A stretch of DNA of 64,000 bases from an uncultured Candidatus Saccharibacteria bacterium (lineage in GTDB: Bacteria > Patescibacteriota > Minisyncoccia > UBA6257 > UBA9933), in NCBI GenBank assembly GCA_964642155.1, contig CAZXNT010000001.1, positions 83 through 64,082 of the forward strand, written 5' to 3'. A program made the translations under genes and the position numbers. The stretch's first letter is position 1. Every line of letters begins with the position of its first letter. A model generated the notes under the pieces. It searched no databases. It saw only the letters and a program-made list of their open reading frames with translations, and was not told the origin of the DNA. Shown here one piece after another: positions 4,242 to 63,351 of the stretch.

Positions 4242-4924
4242 TTTAATTGTAATTTTTTATTCGTATTGAACCTTTTAATTAAAGTTAACCGCTTTAACGC
4301 CTCTTTTAATTGACTGATATTTTTCACCGGGTCTTTCCGCAGTTCAGCGATTAAACTTTTAAAATACTCATCTATTTTATCCTTTTCAATAATTTCTTCA
4401 AGCCCCATTTTTAATATTTTAATTTGCTCTTTTTTTTCCGCATCGGTCCGTGTCAAGTCCGTATTAGTCAGCGCTTGAGGGAAATAAATTTTCTGCAAAC
4501 GCGACGTCAAGGGAGGCAAAAGAGAACTTTCGTCTTTGGCAATAAAAATAATCAAACTGGCTTCCGGCGAATCTTCAACAATTTTAAGGACCGCGTTTTG
4601 CGCTTCGGGAGTCAAATTGTCGGCATCTTTGATTATTACCGTCCTTTTTGGAGATAAAACCGGTTTTTGATATAAAAAATTTCCGATTTTTTTTGATTCA
4701 TCAATTCCTATTATGCCTTTTTCATCAGGCGAAATAATAAAACATTCTCCCAAAATGTTTTTTTCCAACGGCTTGAATTCTTTATTTTCCAAATAATTAG
4801 CGAGCGATAAAGAAAAAATTATTTTCCCCCCGCCGGCTTCGCCAAAAAAAAGATAAGCATGGCTCAATTTATTGCTGTCAGCCAGTTTTTTAAATATTGT
4901 CAATAATTTTCCGTTACCAATCAT
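4223..4924 (-). CDS. holB: DNA polymerase III delta-prime-like AAA+ clamp-loader subunit (short)
   Basis: HAYLFFGEAGGGK Walker-A-like motif and clamp-loader layout; 233 aa. Confidence 0.5.
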   Translation of the reverse strand: MIGNGKLLTIFKKLADSNKLSHAYLFFGEAGGGKIIFSLSLANYLENKEFKPLEKNILGECFIISPDEKGIIGIDESKKIGNFLYQKPVLSPKRTVIIKDADNLTPEAQNAVLKIVEDSPEASLIIFIAKDESSLLPPLTSRLQKIYFPQALTNTDLTRTDAEKKEQIKILKMGLEEIIEKDKIDEYFKSLIAELRKDPVKNISQLKEALKRLTLIKRFNTNKKLQLKCLSRF

Positions 4925-5076
4925 AAAAATTAGAAATCAATTTTCAATTTGCAATTATCAATTTTCATTAAATTTACAATTTTACAATTTTCAAACTTAA
5001 TTTATGTTTAAGTAAAATATTGTAAATTGATTCATTAAAAATTTATTGGAAATTAGAAATTGAAAATTTGTTTAAA
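4925..5076. repeat. AT-rich intergenic repeat (family B) of CAATTTT/GAAAATT heptamers upstream of the holB-like gene; related copy at 63254-63351
   Basis: Shares ATTGTAAATTGATTCATT...AATTTATTGGAAATT and ...TTGAAAATTGTAAA...ATTGAAAATT blocks with 63254-63351, in the same orientation relative to the downstream minus-strand gene. Confidence 0.6.
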
Positions 5077-6084
5077 CTATCTTTTGTTCAACAACGCTCT
5101 CTTATATGTATCCAAATGAGTCAAAATTATGCCGGAACCGCGGGCAACGCAAAACAACGGCTCTTCGGCAACATAAGCATTAACGTTAAAAATTCTTTTA
5201 AAAAATTCTGCTAAATTCATAATTTGCGAACTGCCGCCGGATAAAATAATCCCCTTTTCCATCACATCGGCAACAAGCTCCGGAGGAGTTTCATTGAAAA
5301 CTTTTTTAATCGCCGCCGCGATTTCCATCAAATAAGGATTAATGGCTTCGGCAATTTCATTTGAATTAATAAGAACGTCTTTAGGCATTCCAGTGATTAA
5401 ATCCCTCCCCCTGACCTGACAGCTTAATTTATTTTTCATGGGCAATGCCGAACCGATTTCAATTTTAATATTCTCAGCGGTCTGTTCGCCAATCGCCAGC
5501 GAATGTTTCTTTTTCAAATAGTCGGCTATCGCTTGGTCAAATTTGTTGCCCGCTATCCTCACGCTTGCCCAGGAGACAATTCCGCCTAAAGAAATTATCG
5601 CCACCTCCGCCGTGCCACCGCCGATATTAACAATCATATTTCCAGAACGGGCGTTAATAGGAATACCCGCGCCCAAAGCCGCTAAAATCGGTTCTCTGAT
5701 AATATACGCTTCCTTGGCGCCGGCTTCTTTCGTCGCGTTGATAATCGCCCTTCTTTCCGTTTGAGTTATACCGGCCGGAGCGGAAACAACTACATCGGGC
5801 CTGATAATATTAAACTGACCGATTGCCGAAGAAATAAAATATTTCAACATTGCCCTAGTAATGTAATAGTCCGCGATAACGCCATCCCTGAGGGGCTGAT
5901 ACGGCTTAATATCGTCCGGCGTTCTGCCAATCATTTCTTTCGCTTCTCTGCCAACCGCCATAACTGAATTTTCCGGCATACTTAAAGCCACGATGGTTGG
6001 TTCGTTAATAATAAACCCGCGTCCCGGAACAAAAACAACTGTATTAGTCGTTCCCAAATCTATACCGATTTTTCTAATAAACAT
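5077..6084 (-). CDS. mreB: Rod-shape-determining actin homolog MreB
   Basis: IGIDLGTTNTVVFV...; actin/Hsp70 fold motifs; 335 aa. Confidence 0.9.
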   Translation of the reverse strand: MFIRKIGIDLGTTNTVVFVPGRGFIINEPTIVALSMPENSVMAVGREAKEMIGRTPDDIKPYQPLRDGVIADYYITRAMLKYFISSAIGQFNIIRPDVVVSAPAGITQTERRAIINATKEAGAKEAYIIREPILAALGAGIPINARSGNMIVNIGGGTAEVAIISLGGIVSWASVRIAGNKFDQAIADYLKKKHSLAIGEQTAENIKIEIGSALPMKNKLSCQVRGRDLITGMPKDVLINSNEIAEAINPYLMEIAAAIKKVFNETPPELVADVMEKGIILSGGSSQIMNLAEFFKRIFNVNAYVAEEPLFCVARGSGIILTHLDTYKRALLNKR

Positions 6085-6242
6085 CCCTCACCCTTCAAAG
6101 ATCTATTTTACTCTTGCTATCTTATAGGATAGCAAGAGTAAAATAAAATTCTTTAAATTATTATTTTATTAAAATTATTTGCCTATTCTTTAATCCTTCT
6201 CCTTTTAAATATTAATAATTTTTAATCTTTGAAGGGTGAGGG
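6085..6242. mobile_element. MITE-like palindromic element (family A), copy 1. 18-bp terminal inverted repeat CCCTCACCCTTCAAAGAT, internal 18-bp perfect hairpin, AT-rich core; flanked by AT on both sides
   Basis: Terminal inverted repeats at 6085-6102 and 6225-6242. Near-identical copy at 14307-14458. Inserted exactly between the mreB ATG (6084) and the murA stop (6244). Confidence 0.65.
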
Positions 6243-6243
6243 A

Positions 6244-7539
6244 TTAAATTCTTTTTATGCTTGCTCCCAACTTATTTAATCTTTCATCTACTTTTTCATA
6301 TCCCCTGTCAATTTCTTCCACGCCGTCTATTGTTGATTCGCCTTCGGCGATTAAAGTCGCAATCAAATGAGCCATTCCGGCGCGCAAATCCGGAACTTTT
6401 AAATTTCTCCCCCTCAACGGCGTTGGTCCGGAAATTACCGCGCTGTGCGGATGGTTCTCGCCGTTAAAACGGCAATTCAATTCTCCCAAACACTTTGAGA
6501 ATACTTTAATGTTTGCGCCCATAAAATTCAAGTCCTCAATGTAACCGAAACGATTTTCATAAACAGTTTCATGAATTACTGAAACGCCGTCCGCCTGCGT
6601 TAATAAAATAGTAAACGGCTGTTGCCAATCTGTCATAAATCCCGGGTGAGTATCTGTTTCCAATTCAATCGCCGAAAGGCCGTCGCCTCTCCAAAAAACA
6701 ATACCATCGTCTTCAACGCGATATTTCCCGCCAACTCGCCGCAAAGCGTTTAAAAACGTTATTAAATGTTCATGAATCGCTCCTTTAATTTTAATTTTAT
6801 TATTAACGCCAGCGACTCCCAAACAAGCGAAAGAAGCCGCTTCATTTCTATCCGTTATAATTTTATGCCTCACCCCTTTTAATTTTTTAACTCCTTCTAT
6901 ATAAATCATTCTGTCTGTTCCCAAGCCGATTATAGCTCCCATGTTTTGGAGCATTTTTATAAGGTCAATTATTTCCGGTTCAATCGCCGCATTTTTAATT
7001 GTAGTTTTTCCTTTGGCTAATACCGCCGCCAAAATCGTATTTTCAGTCGCGCCGACCGACGGATAACGAAGATGAATTTTCGCGCCCCTTAATCCATTGG
7101 GAACCGAAGCAATAAAAGAATTTTCCGAAACTTCAATTTCTGCCCCCAAAGATTTTAAAGCGCTTAAATGAATATCAACCGGCCGATGGCCGATTTTATC
7201 TCCTCCTAAAACCGGCACTTCGGCTCTCCCTTCGCGAGCCAATAACGGGCCAAGCGCTAAAATTGAAATTCTATTTTTTCGGCTTAAGGCCGAAGCCGTT
7301 GCGCTTTTAATGGAAGGAGTTTTAATTGACACCACCGAACCGCTTTGTTTTATTTCGCTACCAAAAGCGCGGCAAAGGTCAAACGTAATTTCCGCGTCCC
7401 CTATTTGCGGGAAATTTTCCAAAACGCATTCCTCATCAGTTAATAAAGAAGCGATTAGTGCTTTAGTCGCCGCGTTTTTTGAACCCTTAATTTCAATTTC
7501 GCCTTCTAATTTTTTATTGCCTTGAATAATGAACCTCAT
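6244..7539 (-). CDS. murA: UDP-N-acetylglucosamine 1-carboxyvinyltransferase
   Basis: 431 aa; EPSP-synthase-fold MurA motifs (KNAATKALIASLL, LRGAKIHL...). Confidence 0.9.
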   Translation of the reverse strand: MRFIIQGNKKLEGEIEIKGSKNAATKALIASLLTDEECVLENFPQIGDAEITFDLCRAFGSEIKQSGSVVSIKTPSIKSATASALSRKNRISILALGPLLAREGRAEVPVLGGDKIGHRPVDIHLSALKSLGAEIEVSENSFIASVPNGLRGAKIHLRYPSVGATENTILAAVLAKGKTTIKNAAIEPEIIDLIKMLQNMGAIIGLGTDRMIYIEGVKKLKGVRHKIITDRNEAASFACLGVAGVNNKIKIKGAIHEHLITFLNALRRVGGKYRVEDDGIVFWRGDGLSAIELETDTHPGFMTDWQQPFTILLTQADGVSVIHETVYENRFGYIEDLNFMGANIKVFSKCLGELNCRFNGENHPHSAVISGPTPLRGRNLKVPDLRAGMAHLIATLIAEGESTIDGVEEIDRGYEKVDERLNKLGASIKRI

Positions 7540-13172: not shown

Positions 13173-14306
13173 TTATATATCCCCTTTTCTTATTTTTTGC
13201 CTGATTTTTTCAACCAGCGAATTAAAAAAATAAAGATTATGGAAAGTCAAAAGCCGCAAAGCGGTAATTTCTTTAGCTTTTAAAAGATGAGTAATATAGT
13301 TTCTGCCATAATTTCGGCAAACATCACAGCCACATTTTTTATCCAAAGGATTCTTATCTTTTAGAAAAGCCGACTTATTCATATCCAATCTGCCCTTATC
13401 AATAAAAGCGATTCCGTGTCTGGCGTAATGAGTAGGCATAACGCAATCAAAAGTGTCTATACCTGATTTAATGATTTTTAAAATATCTTCCGGATGGCCT
13501 ATGCCCAAAAGATGGCGCGGTTTATTTTCCGGCAATTCTTTAATCACCCGATTAATCATCTTAATCATTAAATTTTTGCTGTCGCCGAATTCTCCGCCAA
13601 TGCCAAAGCCGTCAAACGGCAAATCGGCGATAAATTTCGCGCTTTCTGTTCTTAAATCCTTAAATTTTCCACCCTGAATAATTCCGAAAATGGCTTGCCG
13701 TGATTTTTTAATTTTTAAACATTCTATCGCCCACCTATGCGTTTTTTCCAAAGATTTTTTTGTATATTCATAATTTGCGTTCGGCGGAGTGCATTCGTCA
13801 AAAACAAAAATGATATCCGCGCCAAGCGCTTCTTGAATTTTTATTGATTCTTTCGGCCCGATAAATAATTTCTCGCCGTTAATCGGCGAACGAAACCAAA
13901 CTCCATTATCGGTAATTTTTATATTTTGAGGCTGCTGACCCAATAATACTTTTATCAACTCGTTTGTTTTTGATATCTTCCCGACTCCCAAATCTTTTCC
14001 AAACCCCAAACTGAAAACCTGAAAACCGCCCGAATCCGTCATTAAGGGCCTATTCCAATTCATAAATTTATGCAAACCTCCGGCTGATTTTACTAATTTT
14101 TCTCCTGGCTTTAAATGGAGATGAAAAGTATTGGAAATTAAAATCTGGCACTTAGCGGCTTTGGCTTCCTCGCTGGTTAAAGTTTTAACAACCGCTTGTG
14201 TGGCAACCGGGACAAAAAACGGCGTTTCAATTTCGCCGTGGGAAGTTTTCAAAATCCCCAATCGCGCCTTACTGCACTTCGATTTTTTTAAAATTTTAAA
14301 CTCCAT
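13173..14306 (-). CDS. tgt: Queuine tRNA-ribosyltransferase
   Basis: 377 aa. TIM-barrel Tgt motifs and C-terminal Zn site CGCDVCRNY...H. Confidence 0.9.
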   Translation of the reverse strand: MEFKILKKSKCSKARLGILKTSHGEIETPFFVPVATQAVVKTLTSEEAKAAKCQILISNTFHLHLKPGEKLVKSAGGLHKFMNWNRPLMTDSGGFQVFSLGFGKDLGVGKISKTNELIKVLLGQQPQNIKITDNGVWFRSPINGEKLFIGPKESIKIQEALGADIIFVFDECTPPNANYEYTKKSLEKTHRWAIECLKIKKSRQAIFGIIQGGKFKDLRTESAKFIADLPFDGFGIGGEFGDSKNLMIKMINRVIKELPENKPRHLLGIGHPEDILKIIKSGIDTFDCVMPTHYARHGIAFIDKGRLDMNKSAFLKDKNPLDKKCGCDVCRNYGRNYITHLLKAKEITALRLLTFHNLYFFNSLVEKIRQKIRKGDI

Positions 14307-14458
14307 CCCTCACCCTTCAAAGATCTATTTTATTCTTGCTATCTTATGGGATAGCAAGAATAAAATAAAATTCTTTAAATTATTATTTTTATTAAAATTC
14401 TATTATTTTACTCTTTAATCCTTCATCCTTTAATTTTTCAATCTTTGAAGGGTGAGGG
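14307..14458. mobile_element. MITE-like palindromic element (family A), copy 2
   Basis: Same termini as copy 1 (CCCTCACCCTTCAAAGATC ... ATCTTTGAAGGGTGAGGG). Inserted exactly between the tgt ATG (14306) and the stop of the histidine kinase (14460). Confidence 0.65.
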
Positions 14459-14459
14459 A

Positions 14460-15785
14460 TTATTCTTCCCCGTAAATAATTTCTTTCGGCGGAATCAATT
14501 TCGGGTCAGTCGGTAAAGTGAAATAAAAAATGCTACCGCGATTCAATTCCGACTCAACCCAAATTTTTCCGCCGTGCCTCCTAATAATATTTTGAGCGAT
14601 GTAAAGCCCAAGTCCGGAAGCCGTAGGAATCGTTTTAATGGCGTTATTCCCCCGAAAAAACTTGGTAAATAATTTATCAATATCTTCCTTGGAAATTCCC
14701 ATACCCGTATCTTTAATGGTGAATTGAATATAGGGCTTATCCGCAAATTTTTCAATAATTAAAATAATCTCTCCGTTTTTAACGTTATATTTAACGGCGT
14801 TGTCCAAAATATTCAATAACACAGTGCTTAATCTTTGAGAATCGACGTTAATTTCTATCGGCTCATCCGGTTTTTGAAAAATAAGTTTAAGTCCGAGTCC
14901 GACGCACACTTCCTTGGTTTTAGAAACTATTTTTTCAACCAATTCAATAATGTTTAATTTTTCAAAATTATAGCCAAAACGCCCTTCTTCTATCTGAAAA
15001 ACATCAAATAAATCATTAACGACTTTAAGCATATAAGAAGAAGCTTCCAACCCGACACCGACCATTTTTTTCTGCTCATCAGATAAAGAATCTTTTGCTA
15101 AATTTTCCAAAACCCAATTGATGCCTGTGAGAGGTGTTCTTAATTGATGGGTGGCAACGCCGATAAATTCGCTTTTTGAACGCAACACTTCAACTTCGCG
15201 CGTGCGGTCCCTGATTATTTTTACGAACCCCAAAAGGTTACCGGCTGGGTCAATGATTTTATTGGTAATCACTCGAAATTCCATTATTGGCTCTTTAAAA
15301 GAAATATCAATCACCTGCGGATAAGCGCCCGCTTCTGAACGTTTTGTTATTGACGGCGCTAAAGAAGGAAAAAGAATTTGGCTTAAAAGTTTGAATTGTA
15401 GCTCTTTTATCTGTTCCGGGGCAAAGCTGATATTAATAACGTTCTCATGCTTTAAATTAAAAATCTGCTCCGCGGCTTGATTAAAAATCAAAATTTTAAA
15501 ATCAGAATCATAAGCGATAACGCCGTCACGAAGAGTTGTGATAACGCTCGTCAATTCATTCCGTTCAATTTTTATTTCTAAATTTGACCTTGCCAGCCGA
15601 AGATTATTAACTAAAATTATTGCCACTAAAACAATAAAAAATCCGGCGGAAAACCAAAGCGCCAAAATCGGTAAATAAAAAATTTCAATCGCAAAAATAA
15701 CAAAAACTAACGGCAAGAAATACCAAAAAAGCCGCATCTCCGGAAGTTTGGCGTATAAAACAAGTTTTTGAAAAAAAATATTCAT
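14460..15785 (-). CDS. Sensor histidine kinase (2 TM, PAS, HisKA, HATPase_c)
   Basis: H-box VATHQLRTPLTGINWVLENL; N/G boxes NAVKYNVKNGEI, DTGMGIS, ASGLGLYIAQ. Confidence 0.85.
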   Translation of the reverse strand: MNIFFQKLVLYAKLPEMRLFWYFLPLVFVIFAIEIFYLPILALWFSAGFFIVLVAIILVNNLRLARSNLEIKIERNELTSVITTLRDGVIAYDSDFKILIFNQAAEQIFNLKHENVINISFAPEQIKELQFKLLSQILFPSLAPSITKRSEAGAYPQVIDISFKEPIMEFRVITNKIIDPAGNLLGFVKIIRDRTREVEVLRSKSEFIGVATHQLRTPLTGINWVLENLAKDSLSDEQKKMVGVGLEASSYMLKVVNDLFDVFQIEEGRFGYNFEKLNIIELVEKIVSKTKEVCVGLGLKLIFQKPDEPIEINVDSQRLSTVLLNILDNAVKYNVKNGEIILIIEKFADKPYIQFTIKDTGMGISKEDIDKLFTKFFRGNNAIKTIPTASGLGLYIAQNIIRRHGGKIWVESELNRGSIFYFTLPTDPKLIPPKEIIYGEE

Positions 15786-19124: not shown

Positions 19125-19196
19125 AGCCGATGGGGAGAATTGAACTCCCGACCTACTCCTTACCATGGAGTTGCTCTGCCGCTGAGCTACATCGGC
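19125..19196 (-). tRNA. tRNA-Thr (anticodon GGU)
   Basis: Reverse complement GCCGATGTAGCTCAGCGGCAGAGCAACTCCATGGTAAGGAGTAGGTCGGGAGTTCAATTCTCCCCATCGGCT; anticodon loop ATGGTAA. Confidence 0.8.
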
Positions 19197-19350
19197 AAAC
19201 ATATTAATCATTTTAAACAGACATCTTGCAGTAAGCATCGGGCTATCGCCCTCTGCCGCTGAGCTACATCGGCAAACATATTAATCATTTTAAACAGACA
19301 TCTTGCAGTAAGCATCGGGCTATCGCCCTCTGCCGCTGAGCTACATCGGC
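19176..19350. repeat. Tandem direct repeat, period 77 bp, ~2.3 copies. Each unit is the 5' 21 nt of tRNA-Thr(GGU) plus a 56-nt spacer
   Basis: CTGCCGCTGAGCTACATCGGC recurs at 19176, 19253 and 19330. The 56-nt spacer AAACATATTAATCATTTTAAACAGACATCTTGCAGTAAGCATCGGGCTATCGCCCT is repeated identically. Confidence 0.85.
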
Positions 19351-19381
19351 AATGAGCCTACTATTGGCGACAATATTTATT

Positions 19382-21934: not shown

Positions 21935-22696
21935 TTAAACTTTTAAACTTTCCATTATTCTATTAATTATCCAATTAACACTCATTTTTGCGTGGTCATT
22001 CGCCGGAATCGGATAATTTATAAAATCCGGATTGTCATCGCTATCAATAATCGCCATAATCGGGATATTCATTTTTCTAGCTTCCCGCACGGCAGTCATA
22101 TGCCCCTTTAAAGACGTATCTATTATAAACAACGCCTCAACCGGCCTTGTCAGATTTTCCAATCCGCCGAACATTCTCTTCATTCGAAAAATGTCTTTAT
22201 TAATCATCACCCTTTCTTTTTTCGTATATTTGTCAAATTCTCCTTTTTCAATTCCAGCCTGAATCTTTTTGAAGTGCTCTATGCGCCCTGAAATCACCTT
22301 AAAGTTTGTTAATAAGCCGCCAACCCAATGATTTTTTACTCGCGGCAAATTAAATTTTTCCGCCATCATTTCCAAAGCCGACTGACTGGCTGGTTGCAAT
22401 CCGACCAACAACACCATTTTTCCGGATTTTATCTGATTTTTTAAAAACTCGGACGCAACATCAATCATCGGTAAAGTTTTTATTAAATCAATAATCTCCA
22501 TTCCGTTGCGAGTGGTAAAAATATATTTTTTGAATTTCGGATTTGTTTTTGTCTTTTTGTGGCCATAAACAACGCCTGCTTTTATCATTTCTTTAATAAT
22601 CTCCGCGTCAATTTCCTTTTCATTGTTTTCACTACTAATAGTGGTTATTTCCTCCGCTAATTCCATATTTGGTTGTAATTGCGCGCCATTTATCAT
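21935..22696 (-). CDS. rpsB: 30S ribosomal protein S2
   Basis: S2-fold motifs (GVVYGHKKTKTNPKF, MVLLVG, IIDTSLKGHM, IPIMAIIDSD); rpsB-tsf gene order. Confidence 0.9.
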   Translation of the reverse strand: MINGAQLQPNMELAEEITTISSENNEKEIDAEIIKEMIKAGVVYGHKKTKTNPKFKKYIFTTRNGMEIIDLIKTLPMIDVASEFLKNQIKSGKMVLLVGLQPASQSALEMMAEKFNLPRVKNHWVGGLLTNFKVISGRIEHFKKIQAGIEKGEFDKYTKKERVMINKDIFRMKRMFGGLENLTRPVEALFIIDTSLKGHMTAVREARKMNIPIMAIIDSDDNPDFINYPIPANDHAKMSVNWIINRIMESLKV

Positions 22697-22873
22697 AACT
22701 TAAACATCTTACTAAAAAAATAACGCTGTTGTCAATGTGGTGATAAAAAAAATTCGGCGTCCCCGCTATGCGGGGGGTCGGATAAAATTATCGTATCAAC
22801 CCCTTTTTTGCCCATAAACAAAAAAGGGGTAAAGCCATAGTCAGAATTCACTACTGGGTCAAGATTTATAAAA

Positions 22874-38092: not shown

Positions 38093-39190
38093 CTATATGT
38101 TTAAATTCCCGTTAGCCGTTAATCGCCTGTTTTTCTTTCTTAAATAATTTATATATCCGGCAATGGCAATTATTACGGCGTTATCGGCGCAAAATTTTTT
38201 TTCTGGAACAAAAAGGTTAATTTTTAATCCTTCATTCTTAATTCTTAATTTCAAATTTTTCTTTAAAGAAAAATTTGATGCCACGCCCCCTGAAATCATA
38301 ATTGATTTAGCATTAAATTCTTTTGCGGCGCGTAAGGTCTTTTTTATTAAAACATCAAAGGTGGCTTGTTGAAAACTGGCGGCTACATTTTCAATTTTAA
38401 CATTTTTATTATCTCGCAAATAATAAAGAATGGAAGTTTTAAGGCCCGAGAAACTAAAATCATAATTTTTTTGGTTGAGCATCGGTCTCGGAAAATCTAT
38501 CGCGTTGGGATTTCCTTTTTTTGCGAGTTTCTCAATTTCCGGACCGCCGGGATAAGGCAAATTCAACAATCTTGCGACTTTATCAAACGCTTCGCCTGCG
38601 GCGTCATCGCGCGTTTCTCCTATTTTTTTATATTTTACTAACGAATTCATTTTAATTAAAATCGTATGCCCGCCGCTTATAATAAGCGCGATTGCCGGAA
38701 ATAAATTTTGAAAATTAGAAATTGAAAATTGAAAATTGACTCTTTTTTGCTCTAGTAAAAAAGAGTAGAGATGGCCCTCTAAATGATTAATGCCGATTAT
38801 ATTAGATTTGAGGTTTGAGATTTGAGATTTGAGATTTTTCGCGAAATTTATGCCGGTCCAAAGCGCCGGTTCAAGTCCGGGACCGACGGTAACGGCAATA
38901 ATATCAGGTTTTAGGTTTTGGGTTTTAGGTTTTAGGTTTTTAAAAAGTAATGGCAAGTTTTTAAGATGTTCGCGTTTGGCCAAATTCGGCACCACTCCGC
39001 CGAATGGCCGGTGAATTTTAATCTGCGACGCCACTAAAGAATTTAGAATATAGAATTTAGGATTTAGAAGTCCGCCTTTCGCTTCAACTAAAGCAATGGC
39101 GGTTTCGTCGCAAGATGTCTCAATAGCGAGAATTTTCATAAAATTATGATGAACTATAAACTTTTTCGCCACGCCCTCGCAGGAGGCCAA
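38093..39190 (-). CDS. tsaD: tRNA N6-threonylcarbamoyladenosine synthase TsaD (Kae1/Gcp family), carrying four in-frame heptanucleotide-repeat insertions
   Basis: ILAIETSCDETAIAL, NHLEGHLYS and ISGGHT motifs. Inserted low-complexity peptides LNPKFYILNSL, KNLKPKTQNLKPD, NLKSQISNLKSNI and NFQFSISNFQNLF. Confidence 0.8.
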   Translation of the reverse strand: MASCEGVAKKFIVHHNFMKILAIETSCDETAIALVEAKGGLLNPKFYILNSLVASQIKIHRPFGGVVPNLAKREHLKNLPLLFKNLKPKTQNLKPDIIAVTVGPGLEPALWTGINFAKNLKSQISNLKSNIIGINHLEGHLYSFLLEQKRVNFQFSISNFQNLFPAIALIISGGHTILIKMNSLVKYKKIGETRDDAAGEAFDKVARLLNLPYPGGPEIEKLAKKGNPNAIDFPRPMLNQKNYDFSFSGLKTSILYYLRDNKNVKIENVAASFQQATFDVLIKKTLRAAKEFNAKSIMISGGVASNFSLKKNLKLRIKNEGLKINLFVPEKKFCADNAVIIAIAGYINYLRKKNRRLTANGNLNI

Positions 39191-45220: not shown

Positions 45221-47086
45221 TTACGCAACCTCCGCTTGATAACACTTCTCGCAGTATACTATCTCTTTTCTCTCGGGTGCATAGGTAGTTTCAAACTCAT
45301 TGCGACAGGGTTCTGTTCCGTGAGTATGAGTAATGGTGTTTTGATAAACTCCGTTGTCTGATTTAGTGCCATTACATTGGCACTTTCTTTTCCATAATTT
45401 GAAAGGGTTTCTTTGTTTGATTCTCTGATAATGACGGCAGTTGGGACATAATCTGGGCAAGGGAAGATTCATTTTACGGTAAAATTCCAGTTCTTGGGGG
45501 ATGATTTTGAAGGCAGTTGTGCACCCCGACGCATCTTGGTCGGGGCTCCGACCCCTTTGGGCGTCGGAGTTGTTCGCGCATTGAATAACTTGGTTTAATA
45601 TATCATCTTTAACATCCTTTATATGATCAGGGAGTTGATCTGATTTTATAGTTATTGGTATGTTCCTTTCTTCCGGGTCTTTCCAGCTATATCCTTGTTC
45701 TATGGCTTGTTCTTTGGTCAAGGGGAAATATTCTTGGGCTATGGTTTCATTATACGCAAACGGACTTAATTCCGGCGGGAAAAATTCTCCATATTTGTAT
45801 ATCCTACCTTTTTTGTCCACATACGGCATAGAATTCATATGTTCTATGATTTGAGTCCTGAGCTTGTCGAAGGATTCCTTGGTATATTGTTTGTTGAGAA
45901 TGCAGTATTTACCTTTTCGCACCATACTGCATCCAAACATATAATCAGATGAAACGACTGTATCGCAATATTGTAAATAATCACCTATCCATGAACCAAA
46001 AGAAAATTTTGTATTGCTAATATTTTCTCCACAATTAATTGATTCATACATTAAAGAAGCATTATTTCCCCAATCGCCATAATCATAACAATCTTTACTA
46101 ATCGGCATATGCGCCTGAAAACAATATTTTAAATTTTCTCCTCCAACAATATCAAATGAATAAAAAATATTTTTACTATTAGAAATATAATCGCCGGAAA
46201 CATTTAAATTTAAGAGTCCATTAGTATTGGGCTTATTTATAGAATTTAACCAAAAATCTTCTGACTTTTTTTTATATTCTCTAATTATTTTAAAAGACTT
46301 AAAATTTAAATTTTCAATAAATTTAGAATATTCTTCTTTTGAATATGGCTTATTAAAAATATGATAATTTTTATGCCTTAAATTTGTACAACTAAAACAA
46401 TTTTGACAGTTTTTAAGATTTTTTGAGAAATAAACATCAATACAATCCAAACAATTCATTGAGAAAGAACACTTATAACAATTTTCGCAATTAAAAAGCT
46501 CATAAGATTTTTGTGTATTAAAAACCCTATAGCAATCCATGGAATCCTGAGATCCCACTATAATTGACGAGTAAGAGCAATTTTCGTTATCTTCGGCTTG
46601 TATTACTAAATAACAATTTTTTAACGGACCGGTATAATTAGTGTATTCGCTATTTATACTGCGTAAATAATCTATTAATAAACTTATCCTTGGAATTTTA
46701 TTTAATAATTCTCTAAATTGTTCAAAAAACGGCTTAGAAAAATCATAATCCCTGCCATAATCTAAAGCATTCCATTTATCCGACAACCAACAAGACGGAC
46801 AATAAACAGGAAAAGAAGTATTCTGGGGATAAACAGCTATTATTAATTTATCACATAAATCGCATTTCCTTTTATAAAAAGTTCTTTCATTTTTGAAGGT
46901 CATTCTTCGTATCAACCTGCACTCCGGACAAAAAGTCGGCGCCGGCACTTGCAGTTTTTTATACATCTCAATATCTTCAATAAAGATATCAAAATTAACA
47001 CTGCATTGTTTGCAAGTTTTACTGTGGGGTTGAAGATTATCTAAAATCTCACCCAACGCTTTATCAAATTGTGGGGTTTTGGACAT
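45221..47086 (-). CDS. Large Cys-rich protein, paralog 1. N- and C-terminal zinc-ribbon-like modules (CxxC...CPxCR...RKC), internally duplicated Cys-cluster / LRNKxYxIxNKQYSKEEY modules
   Basis: See findings. About 50 Cys; conserved termini shared with 48901..50697 and 50722..52371. Confidence 0.6.
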   Translation of the reverse strand: MSKTPQFDKALGEILDNLQPHSKTCKQCSVNFDIFIEDIEMYKKLQVPAPTFCPECRLIRRMTFKNERTFYKRKCDLCDKLIIAVYPQNTSFPVYCPSCWLSDKWNALDYGRDYDFSKPFFEQFRELLNKIPRISLLIDYLRSINSEYTNYTGPLKNCYLVIQAEDNENCSYSSIIVGSQDSMDCYRVFNTQKSYELFNCENCYKCSFSMNCLDCIDVYFSKNLKNCQNCFSCTNLRHKNYHIFNKPYSKEEYSKFIENLNFKSFKIIREYKKKSEDFWLNSINKPNTNGLLNLNVSGDYISNSKNIFYSFDIVGGENLKYCFQAHMPISKDCYDYGDWGNNASLMYESINCGENISNTKFSFGSWIGDYLQYCDTVVSSDYMFGCSMVRKGKYCILNKQYTKESFDKLRTQIIEHMNSMPYVDKKGRIYKYGEFFPPELSPFAYNETIAQEYFPLTKEQAIEQGYSWKDPEERNIPITIKSDQLPDHIKDVKDDILNQVIQCANNSDAQRGRSPDQDASGCTTAFKIIPQELEFYRKMNLPLPRLCPNCRHYQRIKQRNPFKLWKRKCQCNGTKSDNGVYQNTITHTHGTEPCRNEFETTYAPERKEIVYCEKCYQAEVA

Positions 47087-47104
47087 AAAAATTATTCGGA
47101 TATT

Positions 47105-47413
47105 TTATTTAATACACGTCTGCAACCACTCCTTGTATTCCTTATTAACTCTAAAAATATTGATTACGGCTATGCAAGGAAGTATTTTTTGATGATTTTG
47201 TTCGTGAATTAAATTTTCAATCTCCTGCACTTTGGCTTCTACGGTTTTTATTAAAACAGTTATGCCCGGCTGGCTGACCACCCCTTCATCTCCCTGATAT
47301 AAAAAATTTACTCTTGATAAATCAACCGTGCCTGCCAATCCTTTTTCAAGAATAAGTTTGCTTACTTTTTTTGCTTCTTCTTCATCGGAATATGTAACGT
47401 GGATAAATACCAT
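47105..47413 (-). CDS. cutA: Divalent-cation tolerance protein CutA-like
   Basis: 102 aa. MVFIHVTYSDEEEAKK...GLAGTVDL...YKEWL matches the CutA1 fold pattern. Confidence 0.55.
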   Translation of the reverse strand: MVFIHVTYSDEEEAKKVSKLILEKGLAGTVDLSRVNFLYQGDEGVVSQPGITVLIKTVEAKVQEIENLIHEQNHQKILPCIAVINIFRVNKEYKEWLQTCIK

Positions 47414-47417
47414 ATTA

Positions 47418-48875
47418 TTACACTATTGGCTCTTCCGACGGCAATGAAATTTCCGTGGAAGATTTATTTTCGACCTTTGAAATTGGAGCATCGGAGTTTC
47501 CGGCGGAGGACGGCTTTGTAGCCAATCCCTCTTCTTCCGCAATTTTTCTTTTTACTTCTTCAATTGACGAACAATAAATTTGACGATTGTATTCAATGAT
47601 TTTATCTTTATAAGACGGATGCGTTGGCGGTAAAATTTTTAAAGTTTCAGCGGAAAACGGGTCAGCAGTGCCGCCGTCAATGGTCATTTTAATGTAAAAT
47701 TCCTGCATTCCCAGATTTATCATGTCTTTTGCCTTGAAAACCGGCGTCATTTCTTTTTCAAAAACAAGCGCGTCATCGCCGCCAAGCCGAAAAATTACCA
47801 TTGTCGCCACATTGCCCAAAAAAGTCGCCATTATTTGCGGCTGAAGCTGAGCGCGATACTGATGCGCCACTATTAAAGCCAAGCCGTATTTTCTCGCCTC
47901 AGTAAGAATATTGATAAAAGTATCCGTTACCACGTTGTAAAATTCATCAACATAAAAATAAAAATCTTTTCTTTCTCTTTCTTTAATTGCCGACCTTGCC
48001 GTGCCGGCTTGATAAATTTTTGTCACAAACATTGAGCCAAAAAAACTGGAATTTTCTTCTCCTAATTTCCCTTTTGATAAATTTATAAGCAGAATTTTCT
48101 GCTCATTCATTATTTTTTCAAGGTCAACTTTATTTTCTTTTTGACCGAAGATATAACGCAATAATGGATTGGATAAAAACTGACCAAGTTTATTAACTAA
48201 GGGAATAATGGCTTCGGTGTCAAATTTTTCCGACCAATCGGCAAATTCAATCGCCCAAAATCTTTTAACCATTTCGTCTTGGATATATTCCACAACTTTT
48301 TGGCGATAATTTCTATCATTAAGCAATTTCAACATTCCATGCATAGTTGCGTCTGGATAATCAAGTAACGCCAAACAAGTAAATCTAAAAACGTGCTCCA
48401 ATCGCGGCGTCCAATTAGCGCCAAATTGTTTTTTTAAAACTTCAATTAACCCTTGCGTTACTTGATGTTTCATTTCCGGCTCCACATTTTGCAAAGGATT
48501 AAATGAAACCGGCCAATTTGTGTCAGACGGGTCAATTAAAACAACATCCTTTATTCTGTTTTCCGGAATAAAATTAAGAATATCTTCTATAATATCGCCG
48601 TGCGGGTCCATTAAACATAATCCATGGCCATAATTAATATCTTGCCTAATCATTAATTCAAGCATTTTTGACTTCCCCACTCCGGATTTCCCAATAATGT
48701 AGAAATGGCGTCTGCGGTCATTCCTTTTAATTCCAAAAACATATCTTTTGCTTTCAAATTCTGATTCGTAGTTGGTGCGACCGAAAAAACAAACCTCTTG
48801 AGGGTCAACTTGTCCGTAAATCGGCAAATCCGAAGGCGGCGATGCGTATTTAATTATTTTAACTTTATCTGTCAT
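47418..48875 (-). CDS. Soluble VirD4/TraD/TraG-like ATPase, paralog B
   Basis: Walker A GKSGVGKS, DPHGD, Walker B FYVDEFYNV, VAHQYRAQL. Confidence 0.6.
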   Translation of the reverse strand: MTDKVKIIKYASPPSDLPIYGQVDPQEVCFFGRTNYESEFESKRYVFGIKRNDRRRHFYIIGKSGVGKSKMLELMIRQDINYGHGLCLMDPHGDIIEDILNFIPENRIKDVVLIDPSDTNWPVSFNPLQNVEPEMKHQVTQGLIEVLKKQFGANWTPRLEHVFRFTCLALLDYPDATMHGMLKLLNDRNYRQKVVEYIQDEMVKRFWAIEFADWSEKFDTEAIIPLVNKLGQFLSNPLLRYIFGQKENKVDLEKIMNEQKILLINLSKGKLGEENSSFFGSMFVTKIYQAGTARSAIKERERKDFYFYVDEFYNVVTDTFINILTEARKYGLALIVAHQYRAQLQPQIMATFLGNVATMVIFRLGGDDALVFEKEMTPVFKAKDMINLGMQEFYIKMTIDGGTADPFSAETLKILPPTHPSYKDKIIEYNRQIYCSSIEEVKRKIAEEEGLATKPSSAGNSDAPISKVENKSSTEISLPSEEPIV

Positions 48876-48900
48876 TTACTTTTTATTATAGCACTTTACC

Positions 48901-50697
48901 TCAAACAACCTCCTGTTGATAGCATTGTTCGCAATACACAATTTCTTGTCTATCTGGGCTGTAAGTGGTTTCAAATTCATTGAGGCAGGGTTCTGTTCCG
49001 TGAGTATGGGTAATGGTGTTTTGATAGATATTGTTTTCTGATTTTTCTCCAGCGCATTGGCATTTTCTTTTCCATAATTTTAAAGGATTTCTCTGTTTGA
49101 TTCTCTGGTAATGGCGACAATTGGGGCACAATCTAGGTAAAGGAAGATTCATTTTACGGTAGAATTCCAGTTCCTGAGGAATGATTTTGAAGGCTTCTGT
49201 ACACTGCTCGTTGCAAGTTCCTTTATGCTGACATTCTATAATTTGATTAAAAATATCGTCTTTGACATCTTTAATATTGTCGGGTAATTGAGAATTTAAA
49301 ATTGAAAATTGAAAATTTCTAACCTCCGGGTCTTTCCAGTTATAGCCCTGTTCTATTGCCTGTTCTTTAGTCAGAGGGAAATATTCTTGAGCTATTGTTT
49401 CGTTATACGCAAACGGACTTAATTCCGGAGGAAAGAATTCACCGTATTTGTAAACTACTTGTCCTGAGCTTGTCGAAGGATGCCTTTTTGAGATATAGGG
49501 CATATCATTCATATGCTTGATAATTTTCGGCACCAATTTTTCGTATTCTTCTTTACTATATTGTTTATTCAAGATGCAGTATTGCTTGTTGCGAAGGCCG
49601 ATGCAGCCAAAGAGGTTAGAGGAATTGTGACAATTATAAGAGTAATAGACATCCTGTCCTCCCCATATAACAACACCAAACATTAATCGTGAAGCCTGAA
49701 CTCCTGTATCAATAACTTCATATAACATTTCTCCATTTACTCCAACGCCATAACCATCATAGCTATCTCGTAAATCCAACGCGTTCATAACAAATTTACA
49801 ATCCCTCACATTTCCCACAACATCAAAACAATTCAAGCAATTAAAACTATTGTTAACCGCATCACCTGTAATTTTTTGAGAATGTGAAATATTCGCCGAT
49901 TTTCTTAATGCTTTTAATTTTAATTCATTAAATTTATTTTTAATTTCTTTTAAAAATTTAAAATGACCTATATTAAATTGTTCCAATTTATTAAAATATT
50001 CTTCTTTTAAATAGGGTTCGTTAAAAATATGGTATTGCTTATTTCTCAAACCCACTGATCCAAAAACATTTGAACAGCCTTTGCAATCATAAATAAACGA
50101 ACAATTGTTGCAATTTTCGGAATCTTGAGCAAAAAAGGTTGAATATAATTTCGCGGAACTTATATCCTCATAACAAAGCTCACAATTAATAACCGCAAAA
50201 TTATCCGCTGAATCTTTTGATTGGTTACATCTGGATGAATACATTATATTCTCCCCATCCCACGACGCGGAAACTAAATAACCGTTTTTAAAATCTCCTA
50301 TATGATTGCAAAAATTGCTGTTTATTGATCTCCCGTTAAACAAAGCTGGCATTGGCACATGAAGCATTAAATCTTTAAATTGCTTTAAAAAAGTGTTTTT
50401 AAAATCCAATTCTATACCGAAATTCAAAGCGTCCCAATCATCAGACCACCAAATATCTCTATTATAAACCACAATTCCAGATTGTGGAGAAAAACATGAA
50501 ATAAGATCTTTTCCTGTTTTAGCGCACTTATTCCTATAAAAACTTCTTTCGTTTCTATATGTAAATCTCCTCTGTATCCTGCACTCCGGACAAAAAGTCG
50601 GCGGAGGAACCTTTATTTTGGCGTAGAATTCAAAATCTTCGAACTCAATTGTAAAATCATTTTTACAGTTTTGGCATTTTTTTATTTCTTGATTCAT
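48901..50697 (-). CDS. Large Cys-rich protein, paralog 2
   Basis: Same architecture as paralog 1. The C-terminal ~200 aa is ~90% identical to paralog 1. Confidence 0.6.
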   Translation of the reverse strand: MNQEIKKCQNCKNDFTIEFEDFEFYAKIKVPPPTFCPECRIQRRFTYRNERSFYRNKCAKTGKDLISCFSPQSGIVVYNRDIWWSDDWDALNFGIELDFKNTFLKQFKDLMLHVPMPALFNGRSINSNFCNHIGDFKNGYLVSASWDGENIMYSSRCNQSKDSADNFAVINCELCYEDISSAKLYSTFFAQDSENCNNCSFIYDCKGCSNVFGSVGLRNKQYHIFNEPYLKEEYFNKLEQFNIGHFKFLKEIKNKFNELKLKALRKSANISHSQKITGDAVNNSFNCLNCFDVVGNVRDCKFVMNALDLRDSYDGYGVGVNGEMLYEVIDTGVQASRLMFGVVIWGGQDVYYSYNCHNSSNLFGCIGLRNKQYCILNKQYSKEEYEKLVPKIIKHMNDMPYISKRHPSTSSGQVVYKYGEFFPPELSPFAYNETIAQEYFPLTKEQAIEQGYNWKDPEVRNFQFSILNSQLPDNIKDVKDDIFNQIIECQHKGTCNEQCTEAFKIIPQELEFYRKMNLPLPRLCPNCRHYQRIKQRNPLKLWKRKCQCAGEKSENNIYQNTITHTHGTEPCLNEFETTYSPDRQEIVYCEQCYQQEVV

Positions 50698-50721
50698 AAT
50701 TTTTTATTCATAATCCATAAA

Positions 50722-52371
50722 TTATACCACTTCTCTTAAATAACACTCTTCACAAACAATTTTTTTATATCCCCATTCTTTTGGATAATAGGAAACAATA
50801 TTTTTTTGACAAAACGCGCATTTGGCCTCAACCGGATTGATGCAGAACAAATTTTTTATTCTGCTTTTGGTGCGCACATCAGGATAGTGATGAGGCAAGG
50901 GAATGGAATGTTTTTTGTAAAATTCAACTTCTTCCCGCCTTAAATTAAACGGTCTGCCTGTTTCTTCGCACAAAAAAACCCTACCAGCCATTTCATCACC
51001 CACAGTGCTTATATCATCTATAAATGGATTTATGGTTAAGTTAGAAACATCAGCATCTTCAAGCTCTTCCCAATTTCCTTCCGATTTAACAACTTCTTCT
51101 TTTACCTTGGGGAAAAATATTCCGGCTAAAGAAAGATTATATCCTCCGTGCGCCATTTTATAAGGAAAAAATTCGCCATAAGAACCATCATTTTCCATCG
51201 CCTGCTTGATTTTAGCCACCAAATCATAATAATCTTCTTTGGAATACTGCTTATTTAAAATGGAATAGCTTTTATTTTTCAACCCAACGCACCCGAAACA
51301 ATTTTCGCACCCGACACAGGAATCAAGATATTCACTGTCACGGCAATTTATACAATAATTAGAGTGCTTCATATTGTATATCTCAGTCATTTGATTTACG
51401 TCATACGCCAATTCTCCTTTATAAACCCCAGTCGAGTCATTTACGTCCTTATTCATCGCTCCTCTGAAATAATAAGAACAATCCTCCGATTTTTCCAAAA
51501 AATAAGAATTTTTACATTTTTTACACTCGCTTAAATAATTACCGCTTGAATTAACGGTTTTGGTATTGAAATTATTTTTATGAACCGCTTCTTCCTTAAT
51601 TTTTTTCTCAAAAGTTTTCTTTAAAAATTGAATCGTATTCCAAGAATTTAAATTATATTCCTTCAATTTCTGAAAATATTCTTCCTTGGAATACGGCTGG
51701 TTTAAAATATAATATTCTTTATTGCGCAAATTCCAACACATAAAGCAATTTCTCATGTTGTGGCAGTCATACAAAAACGAGGCGTCAAAACTGTCTCGCG
51801 TATCAAAAGCGTATTTTACATTATAAAGCTTAAAACAATAGGAGCAGTCGTAGGATAGTTCAGAATCATAACAATAAGTTAGATCATATGAATCGCGACA
51901 ATTTAAGGTTCTGTATGAATATAAAAGATTTTCGCAATTTGCCAAAGACCGACAAAGATAGCAATTTTTTGAATCCCACACATCATCGCAATAATCGCAA
52001 TTTTGATTATTAGAGCCGAATTGGTGCGGTTTGGGCGCTTTTGTTTGCAATTCATAAAGCTGGTCAAAAAAAGTTTTGGAAAAGTCGTATTCTAAAAAAG
52101 GCGGTTCCCAAGCATCCGAATACCAATGACTCGATTTATATACCGGAAAGTGCACGTTTGACGGAAAAATAGAAATTATGCTTTCTCCGCTCAAATCGCA
52201 TTTTCTTTTGTTAAATTTGGCAAACGGCCAAAAAGCCAGCCGTTTTTGTTGACGACAACTTGAACACATTCTCGGCGCCGGGACTTTTATTTTAGCGTAA
52301 AACTCAAAATCCTCCGGCTCAATGGTAAACTGGTTTTTACAGTTTTGGCACTGTTTGGTTTCGGAAATCAT
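50722..52371 (-). CDS. Large Cys-rich protein, paralog 3 (more divergent)
   Basis: N-terminal CQNCKNQFTIEPEDFEFYAKIKVPAPRMCSSCRQQKR, internal duplicated modules, and a C-terminal Cys ribbon. Confidence 0.55.
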   Translation of the reverse strand: MISETKQCQNCKNQFTIEPEDFEFYAKIKVPAPRMCSSCRQQKRLAFWPFAKFNKRKCDLSGESIISIFPSNVHFPVYKSSHWYSDAWEPPFLEYDFSKTFFDQLYELQTKAPKPHQFGSNNQNCDYCDDVWDSKNCYLCRSLANCENLLYSYRTLNCRDSYDLTYCYDSELSYDCSYCFKLYNVKYAFDTRDSFDASFLYDCHNMRNCFMCWNLRNKEYYILNQPYSKEEYFQKLKEYNLNSWNTIQFLKKTFEKKIKEEAVHKNNFNTKTVNSSGNYLSECKKCKNSYFLEKSEDCSYYFRGAMNKDVNDSTGVYKGELAYDVNQMTEIYNMKHSNYCINCRDSEYLDSCVGCENCFGCVGLKNKSYSILNKQYSKEDYYDLVAKIKQAMENDGSYGEFFPYKMAHGGYNLSLAGIFFPKVKEEVVKSEGNWEELEDADVSNLTINPFIDDISTVGDEMAGRVFLCEETGRPFNLRREEVEFYKKHSIPLPHHYPDVRTKSRIKNLFCINPVEAKCAFCQKNIVSYYPKEWGYKKIVCEECYLREVV

Positions 52372-52880
52372 ATCAATTCCAATTCAATATTTAAAAGTTC
52401 TTCCATTGTTTTATGATAAATTTCGATTATTCTTTTAGCTTCTCCTATCGGCAAATGAAAATCGGCTTCGTGGGCAAGCCTATTCCTAACTTTATGCGCT
52501 TCCCATAATTCATTTATGTTTTTAAATTCGCTCGGATGAATTGATTTTAATCGCTCTCCCATATCTTGGCCCGGATGGCCGTGTTCTTTTAAAATTTCGT
52601 CAACCAAACTGTCGGCTTCAATAATCGCCAAACGCAAATCGCGCTCATCGCCGGATTTTATTCTTTCTAATAATTTACTCCATTTTTTATGAATTAATTC
52701 TCTATGCTTGATTATCTGCCTATATTTACCGTCAGTTACTTTCAAACCCTTAAGAAGATTAAGAGTTTCCGAAGGATTCAATTTTTGCCTGAATGCCGAA
52801 GATTTTACCATCAGCCAAATAATGGCGATGACTAACGCCAGTATTAGAATAATTAAAATAATTTGCAAAGTTAATATCAT
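52368..52880 (-). CDS. Membrane-anchored protein with C-terminal HEPN-like Rx4H motif (RNRLAHE)
   Basis: N-terminal TM helix; C-terminal ELWEAHKVRNRLAHEADFHLPIGEAKRIIEIYH (R-x4-H in a helix). Confidence 0.4.
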   Translation of the reverse strand: MILTLQIILIILILALVIAIIWLMVKSSAFRQKLNPSETLNLLKGLKVTDGKYRQIIKHRELIHKKWSKLLERIKSGDERDLRLAIIEADSLVDEILKEHGHPGQDMGERLKSIHPSEFKNINELWEAHKVRNRLAHEADFHLPIGEAKRIIEIYHKTMEELLNIELELI

Positions 52881-63253: not shown

Positions 63254-63351
63254 ATATTAATTTTCAATTTACAATTTTCAAGCATTTAATTTAAACATTG
63301 TAAATTGATTCATTGTAAATTTATTGGAAATTGATAATTAAAAATTGTAAA
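63254..63351. repeat. Family B AT-rich heptamer repeat, copy 2, interrupting the VirB4-like gene
   Basis: Shares blocks with 4925-5076 (see above). Confidence 0.6.

Follow-up and report, generated by a model that had tools for sequence, protein, structure and literature searches.

Start-codon inverted-repeat elements of a Saccharibacteria contig share their arms with small GIY-YIG nuclease-bearing elements of Patescibacteria

The 64,000-nucleotide stretch analysed here (the window), from contig CAZXNT010000001.1 of an uncultured Candidatus Saccharibacteria bacterium, contains two copies of a palindromic element of about 155 bp, each placed between the stop codon of one gene and the ATG of the next. 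Our best reading is that these copies, which are of the miniature inverted-repeat transposable element (MITE) type and have no open reading frame (ORF), belong as non-autonomous members to a mobile family of short elements with inverted-repeat ends, specific to Paceibacteria and the Candidate Phyla Radiation (CPR). The family is probably associated with a GIY-YIG nuclease, the sole protein encoded by 289–292-bp elements that have the same outer arms and occupy the same kind of site. CPR/Patescibacteria genomes are tiny and gene-dense, and to our knowledge little repeat or insertion sequence (IS) content has been reported in them; our literature search found no description of MITEs in CPR bacteria.

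Two copies of one element before mreB and tgt

The 18-mer CCCTCACCCTTCAAAGAT matches the window four times, against 0.03 matches expected from shuffled sequences, at 6085-6102(+), 6225-6242(-), 14307-14324(+) and 14441-14458(-), which make up two inverted pairs. The pairs bound copy 1 (6085-6242, 158 bp) and copy 2 (14307-14458, 152 bp), both on the minus strand and neither with an ORF filling it, as is the case for a short, non-coding MITE. The terminal inverted repeats (TIRs) of both copies are perfect over 18 nt, or 20 nt with the flanking AT counted. Read along the minus strand, both copies stand as TAA-T-[element]-ATG with AT on either flank. In copy 1 the stop-proximal arm (the 5' arm in gene sense, CCCTCACCCTTCAAAGAT) lies at 6225-6242 and the ATG-proximal arm (ATCTTTGAAGGGTGAGGG), which adjoins the mreB ATG directly, at 6085-6102; the corresponding arms of copy 2 lie at 14441-14458 and 14307-14324. 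An inner hairpin with a perfect 18-bp stem is found at 6104-6145, 1 nt from the ATG-proximal arm, and at 14326-14367. The two copies are 94% identical across the 93-nt ATG-proximal part and differ in the AT-rich core by a 9-nt indel and substitutions.

Copy 1 takes up the whole spacer, except one T, between a murA-type gene (EPSP_synthase, 6244-7539) upstream and mreB (MreB, 5077-6084) downstream; copy 2 lies between the stop of a PAS/HisKA/HATPase histidine kinase gene (14460-15785) and the start of tgt (TGT, 13173-14306), all four genes being on the minus strand and assigned by Pfam. The first-pass annotation, made from the window alone, had described the shared 18-bp TIR with AT on both sides and the identical placement between stop codon and ATG, both of which are borne out. 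It had further called the element the entire 5' leader of mreB and tgt; the sequence shows it to be the entire intergenic spacer, and thereby a putative leader.

A multi-copy family in Patescibacteria

Genome, metagenome and viral collections were scanned for exact matches to the 18-mer. In the genome scan, which covered one genome per species (596 Gb), 61 loci were recovered, about 50 of them in Patescibacteria metagenome-assembled genomes (MAGs) that include Jorgensen-, Wolfe-, Lipton-, Brenner- and Harrisonbacteria, Paceibacterota and third-party-annotation (TPA) MAGs labelled Saccharibacteria. The 10 matches in other phyla are all unpaired and without AT flanks, and their number is roughly that estimated by chance for an 18-mer in 596 Gb. 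The metagenome scan gave at least 120 stretches, mainly from groundwater and for the most part in Patescibacteria contigs. Pooling yielded at least 175 paired elements, at least 119 of them unique when flanks are included, with a length of 95-175 bp (most 120-175 bp). One MAG has at least 16 copies and Jorgensenbacteria LCPF01 at least 11, compared with two in the window, and the genes downstream belong to at least 75 families; the element is thus clearly neither limited to its two window copies nor absent from other genomes. Within a genome the element interiors resemble one another; those of different genomes do not, and this holds also where the gene junction is shared. The arms are identical throughout, including in lineages with diverged flanking genes. 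The viral-contig scan returned one unpaired 18-mer match and none for the right end of the nuclease-bearing type; carriage by phages was rejected because the family is essentially absent from viral contigs.

Reduced and variant forms occur as well. A solo left arm (TAAT-CCCTCACCCTTCAAAGAT-AG-ATG) before pilC at two loci (L038 5894-5916, L093 9461-9483) is apparently what is left of an element at a junction where related lineages have complete ones. Some mini-elements, 28-65 bp long, have little beyond the two arms (L037 3226-3253, L046 about 1033-1060, L108 262-326), and two mini-elements are nested in larger copies, one of them at TAAT/element/ATG within the non-coding interior. In a Wolfebacteria relative, the element before frr (L065 4843-5066) has variant arms, CCCCCACCC/GGGTGGGGG, with the change present in each of the two, and a second element with arms CCCCCACTCTTCAAG is nested in it.

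Empty sites and duplication of AT

Comparison with related genomes identified exact filled and empty alleles at two junctions. In relatives whose Tgt is 92% and 88% identical to that of the window, the kinase and tgt genes overlap as ...GAAGAGTAATGGAATTT and ...GAAGAATAATGGAATTT, as against ...GAAGAATAAT[element]ATGGAGTTT in the window; in the loci L068, L069 and L071 the empty site reads GAATAATGGA where the window has GAATAAT[element]ATGGA. The window itself holds the empty allele at rpsB (TTGACA-17-TAAGATgtttaagttATGata), with the unoccupied target GTTATG at the start codon (22694-22699, minus strand). The same site is filled in locus L052 (S2 protein 81% identical) by a 150-bp family member, as ...TAAGATatttaagttAT[element]ATGata; aligned at the insertion point, GTTATGATA of the window stands against GTTAT[element]ATGATA. 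Both insertions are exact and duplicate AT, TAATG becoming TAAT[element]ATG and GTTATG becoming GTTAT[element]ATG. A duplication of TA through shifted boundaries is impossible, as no boundary choice yields TA on both sides. In copy 2 the duplicated AT corresponds to 14305-14306, in the tgt start codon, and 14459-14460, on the kinase side, the empty allele in relatives being TAATG. Copy 2 and the rpsB site serve as the model for assigning the two copies of the duplication around copy 1: the AT of the mreB start codon (6083-6084), and the last A of the murA TAA with the spacer T (6243-6244).

The left AT is sometimes mutated (GT, AC), which fits a duplicated flank and not a constrained end. TAAT was rejected as a part of the mobile unit, since left flanks such as TTAT, GAAT, GTTAT, TCGAT and others occur. 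These alleles show that the elements insert at an AT dinucleotide and duplicate it. A systematic search found many further empty junctions among the fetched loci, and the closest murA/mreB relatives (MreB 98% identical in amino acids, 90% in nucleotides) lack the element and read TAA-AATT-ATG. Short non-coding sequence, perfect TIRs, many copies in many genomes and a target duplication seen between filled and empty sites together uphold the first-pass view of the element as MITE-like; of the generic features of MITEs, only a transposase-encoding partner was not found. In another relative, with Tgt 90% identical, the kinase/tgt junction is occupied by an unrelated 319-nt insert (L070 2682-3000). 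This insert has GC-rich hairpins as well as long inverted repeats, and a TGCTAAAAT of its own lies immediately 5' of the ATG.

Restriction to start codons and fixed orientation

In 107 of the 119 unique copies the element directly adjoins the ATG of an ORF that is 50 or more codons long; in 65 of the 119 there is, in addition, an upstream ORF of 50 or more codons with its stop 1-2 nt from the left arm, and the arrangement NTAAT/element/ATG is found in 71. Non-coding DNA of the window offers 589 AT and 149 ATG/CAT, versus 59 start codons, so that the observed start-codon share of 90% compares with an expected share, under neutral retention, of 9% if every AT that tolerates insertion were open to use or 28% if every such ATG were (P about 5e-45). 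Copies that are nested within another element, and so put no gene at risk, are flanked as AT/element/ATG twice and as AT/element/ATA twice. In this small sample the G is apparently not required mechanistically, which points to selection as the source of the restriction. Orientation is almost fixed: in 99 of 104 copies the sense strand of the downstream gene is the A-rich one, and 95 of 104 have a hairpin, variable in sequence, that ends 0-5 nt short of the ATG-proximal arm.

Nuclease-bearing relatives with the same arms

The arms of the family also bound elements that carry a gene. Such relatives were seen in loci L157, L173, L192-211 and L213-215; all four that were measured are 289-292 bp long. 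The elements have outer arms CCCTCACCCTT in common with the MITEs, the TAAT/element/ATG signature and the same orientation. In L157 and L173 (290-292 bp) the arms read CCCTCACCCTT[C/A]AAGCAT and enclose one ORF each. The sole ORF encodes an intact Slx1/UPF0213-type GIY-YIG nuclease of 85-88 aa (Pfam PF01541, E = 2e-15), in which the catalytic Y, Y, R, H and E are invariant across 18 sequences. Bacterial UPF0213 (1zg2, 1ywl) and eukaryotic SLX1 (7cq2) proteins are its closest sequence relatives and provide the nearest solved structures. A protein search gave 80 homologue clusters, nearly all of 85-88 aa and many on contigs shorter than 2 kb.

The nuclease ORF is built into the arms. The right arm (ATGCTTGAAGGGTGA) encodes the last 4-6 codons and the stop, giving the C-termini SLMLEG*, SLMLQG* and SLML* in about 20 clusters, and N-terminally over-extended gene calls run through the left arm as PSPF or PSPL. 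Fetched contexts read TAAT/CCCTCACCCTTTAGAGCATTA..ATG...TAATGCTCTAAGGGTGAGGG/ATG, TAGT/CCCTCACCCTTGCGGCAG...CTACCGCAAGGGTGAGGG/ATG and TAAT/CCCTCACCCTTCAAGCATCT ATG...ATGCTTGAAGGGTGAGGG/ATG. The outer 11 nt of the arms (CCCTCACCCTT) are constant, and the inner part varies with changes matched on both sides. The nuclease ATG follows the upstream stop by 21-24 nt, and the nuclease stop precedes the downstream ATG by 3 nt (TGA) or 9 nt (TAA).

Nucleases that are 88-100% identical, with identical arms, stand at three unrelated junctions, in L157, in a type IV secretion system (T4SS)-like cluster in L213 and between asnB and a GT4 glycosyltransferase gene in L214, all as TAAT/element/ATG; going by these positions, the 290-bp GIY-YIG elements appear to have moved between junctions. 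Both types of element also occur together. A nuclease element and MITEs with exact arms share one contig (L157). The Wolfebacteria genome GCA_016214005.1 likewise combines the nuclease element of L213 with MITEs of the exact-arm type (L028, L045), and one of its mreB loci (L064) is related to the window. The pilT/pilC junction (PilT about 80% identical) is filled by either of two different nuclease elements, by a genome-specific MITE or by a solo arm. Across about 190 loci, no arm pairs 0.3-4 kb apart, no partner core close to an unpaired arm and no transposase-like ORF beside one were found; the unpaired arms are accounted for by chance matches in other phyla, by contig ends and by solo arms. 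Our literature search found no TIR-flanked or selfish Slx1-type GIY-YIG gene described.

A second arm family, CCCCCACATAACTTGCAA (CCCCCACATAACTTG), bounds another GIY-YIG gene, of 83 aa, as TGAAT/element/ATG (L131, reverse strand, about 4400-4790; L104 1-300; L189), at a locus that was not selected by the search pattern. A 26-nt solo hairpin of CCCCCACATAACTTGCAA arms lies directly beside the second-family element.

RNA fold of the elements

For the RNA of copy 1 the predicted folding energy is -64.4 kcal/mol, whereas shuffled sequences average -27.1 (z = -10.7). Both codons contribute to the 21-bp outer stem of this fold, the stop codon with its last A and the start codon with its A and U, together with the spacer U; stop and start are thus paired with each other. 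Between the inner hairpins of the two copies there is one compensated pair, C-G in copy 1 and T-A in copy 2, and two subfamily members from other contigs add two further compensated pairs. Hairpin pairs changed on both sides thus number 3 in 4 sequences, a level reached by 6 of 500 shuffles. The structure-preserving changes that the first-pass annotation had noticed are therefore real, and they do not tell selection on a folded RNA from palindrome correction at the DNA level.

The element matched only hairpin-like microRNA families below threshold in an E-value scan of Rfam, and a gathering-threshold scan of the whole window gave tRNAs only; a known RNA family was rejected, nothing lying above the Rfam gathering threshold. 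An internal promoter or terminator was likewise rejected, as consensus-scan matches were not above shuffled expectation. The right arm contains a Shine-Dalgarno (SD)-like GGGTGA (GGGUGA in RNA) that could pair with the 16S tail at suitable spacing. An SD-like motif at -18 to -4 is present in 5 of 59 long window ORFs, two of the five being supplied by the element; with so few SD-like genes and many that look leaderless, a Shine-Dalgarno role of the right arm was not adopted as the main mechanism. Several window genes have TGCTATAAT or TGCTAAAAT 5-12 nt 5' of the ATG, and the start regions suggest that leaderless or very short-leader mRNAs are widespread among the window genes.

Discussion

Given the shared arms, the shared junctions and the ORF that runs into the arms, we lean slightly towards the GIY-YIG nuclease as the enzyme that would mobilize the family by acting on its arms. 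GIY-YIG enzymes such as I-TevI and Eco29kI leave a 2-nt 3' stagger. The nuclease, supplied in trans, may recognize the arms, possibly as a hairpin or cruciform, which would be in keeping with its kinship to SLX1, and cut with such a stagger. Excised element ends and cut AT targets would then bear compatible AT overhangs, the joining of which by host repair would duplicate AT, and the same cutting could let one element replace another at a filled site. That the 289-292-bp units are autonomous elements with an Slx1-like GIY-YIG nuclease as their only protein, and the 155-bp copies their MITEs, non-polar at start codons, is a fuller proposal that we rate at somewhat under an even chance.

We suggest only tentatively that the insertions are tolerated because translational coupling is preserved. 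The 18-21-bp stem in the mRNA would set the upstream stop region and the downstream AUG at the foot of one helix; a ribosome that terminates at the UAA could open the lower end of the stem and start anew at the adjoining AUG, which would make an insertion within a coupled gene pair non-polar. In the nuclease-bearing version, non-polarity might come from serial coupling, from the upstream stop to the nuclease ORF and on to the downstream ATG. Selection for such a stop-to-start arrangement would explain both the start-codon restriction and the fixed orientation. Ribosome shunting, as in the cauliflower mosaic virus (CaMV) 35S leader, and termination-reinitiation at stop/start overlaps have the same architecture, with an ORF stop and the next start at the feet of a stem; this is an analogy only, and unlike in those systems the rpsB site in L052 is filled without an upstream ORF.

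Several observations weigh against this combined account. The MITE interiors show no significant similarity to the nuclease elements beyond the arms, for which reason their origin as deletion derivatives of the nuclease gene was rejected. The 64-kb window contains no GIY-YIG gene, the 85-aa domain is without a joining activity or a DNA-binding domain, and the collection scans, being limited to exact 18-mer matches, would let an autonomous element with diverged arms escape. Four of the closer comparisons are inexact, the empty site having a spacer of AATT, AAAT, AT or 16 nt and the filled site reading exactly TAA-T-element-ATG, so simple cut-and-paste with AT duplication does not cover every site; either insertion favours lineages that already have TAATG or spacer is lost on insertion. 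Symmetric arms and a symmetric AT give no account of the orientation bias. At rpsB of the L052 type the element is a 5' untranslated region with no upstream ORF, and termination coupling cannot operate there. The SD-like GGGTGA in the right arm may be irrelevant in a host that scarcely uses Shine-Dalgarno sequences.

The strongest competitor, which we consider unlikely and still worth serious attention, is an ordinary MITE moved in trans by an undetected conventional transposase, for example a DDE enzyme of the IS630, IS5 or IS30 type, with the GIY-YIG gene as cargo or as a separate selfish gene. Perfect TIRs with a 2-bp duplication are the classic DDE signature, the MITE interiors are unrelated to the nuclease elements, and diverged autonomous copies could be missed by exact 18-mer scans. 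However, the approximately 190 loci include no long copy and no unpaired arm by a transposase-like ORF, and the duplicated dinucleotide is AT, unlike the TA of IS630/Tc1. Also against it are the nuclease ORF, whose stop and last 4-6 codons are part of the right arm in about 20 clusters, and the nuclease elements, which keep a constant size of 289-292 bp and themselves stand at different junctions with the same signature. Movement as single-stranded DNA by an HUH enzyme (RAYT or TnpA), as for repetitive extragenic palindromes (REP/REPIN) or the palindrome-associated transposable elements (PATEs) of IS200/IS605, could draw on the hairpin-forming ends, the subterminal hairpin and the orientation-specific placement by a short conserved left flank, T[A/T]AT. 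We regard it as very improbable: the single arm is not palindromic and lacks a GTAG-type head, neither long perfect TIRs nor duplication of a dinucleotide is a feature of those families, the sequence of the subterminal hairpin is not conserved between subfamilies, and no HUH gene was seen among the few ORFs screened in the loci.

The remaining alternatives treat the element as a regulatory sequence. An immobile, vertically inherited cis-regulatory RNA, a translational operator or attenuator that sequesters start codons, would suit the very stable fold that pairs the start codon, the compensated hairpin changes and the fixed orientation to the gene. As an origin it is contradicted by empty sites in close relatives that differ by the element and AT alone, and at least 75 unrelated downstream gene families, arms that are identical across lineages with diverged flanking genes, interiors that follow the genome and not the locus, and the absence of an Rfam family match leave it hardly credible; any regulation after insertion would be secondary. 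Least probable of all are repeated intrinsic terminators or attenuators between genes. The sole terminator-like call, the inner hairpin with a T-rich tail, was made on the strand antisense to the genes, whereas the sense strand has no U-tract after the hairpin; moreover, the elements lie within co-directional gene pairs directly before start codons, and terminator-like counts do not exceed the shuffled expectation. A GIY-YIG-associated mobile family is the reading that we consider most likely, with moderate confidence.

Among known systems, the Correia elements of Neisseria, ERIC/IRU of enterobacteria and RUP are non-coding sequences of 100-160 bp with TIRs and many intergenic or intra-operon copies, and extended hairpins form in their mRNA; their insertions are polymorphic and duplicate 2 bp. 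The window family resembles them in size, TIRs, copy number, hairpin and 2-bp duplication; it differs in duplicating AT and not TA, which also sets it apart from IS630/Tc1-mariner MITEs including the Correia type, in standing at start codons in about 90% of cases, in its almost fixed orientation and in its CPR hosts, and its arm-sharing coding relatives carry a GIY-YIG nuclease and not a DDE transposase. IS200/IS605 PATEs and REP/REPIN-RAYT systems are, like the window family, small structured non-coding extragenic repeats with a single small nuclease-type partner. Unlike it, they lack long TIRs and target duplications and depend on HUH enzymes that act on single-stranded DNA. The arm sequence of the window family is not palindromic as that of REP/REPIN is, and its perfect TIRs, AT duplication and single hairpin of variable sequence are not those of PATEs.

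Free-standing GIY-YIG homing endonucleases (the phage T4 Seg and I-TevI family) are proteins of about 200-250 aa with DNA-binding modules, whose genes reach one cognate locus by recombination and are not known to have inverted-repeat ends or non-coding derivatives. The 290-bp relatives, though not the window copies, have the catalytic domain of this group (PF01541, with intact residues), and they share with it a nuclease gene set precisely between intact host genes and a selfish-looking distribution; the 2-nt staggered cut of the superfamily fits the 2-bp duplication. In contrast, they encode a bare 85-88-aa domain without a DNA-binding module, are bounded by TIRs and occur at several unrelated junctions. 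SLX1 is a structure-specific nuclease of branched and hairpin DNA, which by analogy would suit a paired-arm substrate, whereas SLX1 and UPF0213 proteins are not known to be associated with mobile elements. A 2006 survey of the GIY-YIG superfamily regarded the Slx1/UPF0213 branch as one of repair-type, non-selfish enzymes (PMC1564403).

Should movement be driven by the nuclease, the elements would represent a new minimal class of mobile element, and the stand-alone Slx1/UPF0213 GIY-YIG proteins, which are widespread in bacteria and uncharacterised, would gain their first biological role. The fuller proposal, if true, would define a mobility class apart from DDE, HUH, serine/tyrosine-recombinase and Cas1 elements, with an autonomous unit of 289-292 bp that is far smaller than any autonomous cellular transposon known to us. 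If the stem preserves translation, the insertions would be a natural case of bacterial reinitiation across a hairpin. The family also illustrates how selfish DNA can persist where there is almost no non-coding space, by insertion at a stop/start junction in which both codons are rebuilt by the 2-bp duplication. A structure of about -60 kcal/mol before essential genes (mreB, tgt, rpsB, pilC) matters for annotation and for expression models, and the repeats probably fragment CPR assemblies, as many nuclease homologues are on the short contigs noted above.

Other repeats in the window

Three further repeats were noted. A 77-nt unit, composed of the first 23 nt of tRNA-Thr(GGT) and 54 nt upstream, is repeated 2.3 times with 100% identity at 19174-19352 (minus strand); it may have arisen by tandem duplication, as a scar of integration or as an artefact of assembly. 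A second family of intergenic repeats, AT-rich and made of heptamers of the AATTGAAAATT / TTTCTAATTT type, occurs in both orientations at 4937-5075, 38698-38740, 49261-49317 and 63250-63353, and similar repeat-plus-hairpin spacers are found at "empty" junctions in relatives (L066, L088, L153). Several diverged direct repeats of 100-300 nt, 77-85% identical and about 3.7 kb apart, lie in 45226-52372 and indicate a run of paralogous genes.

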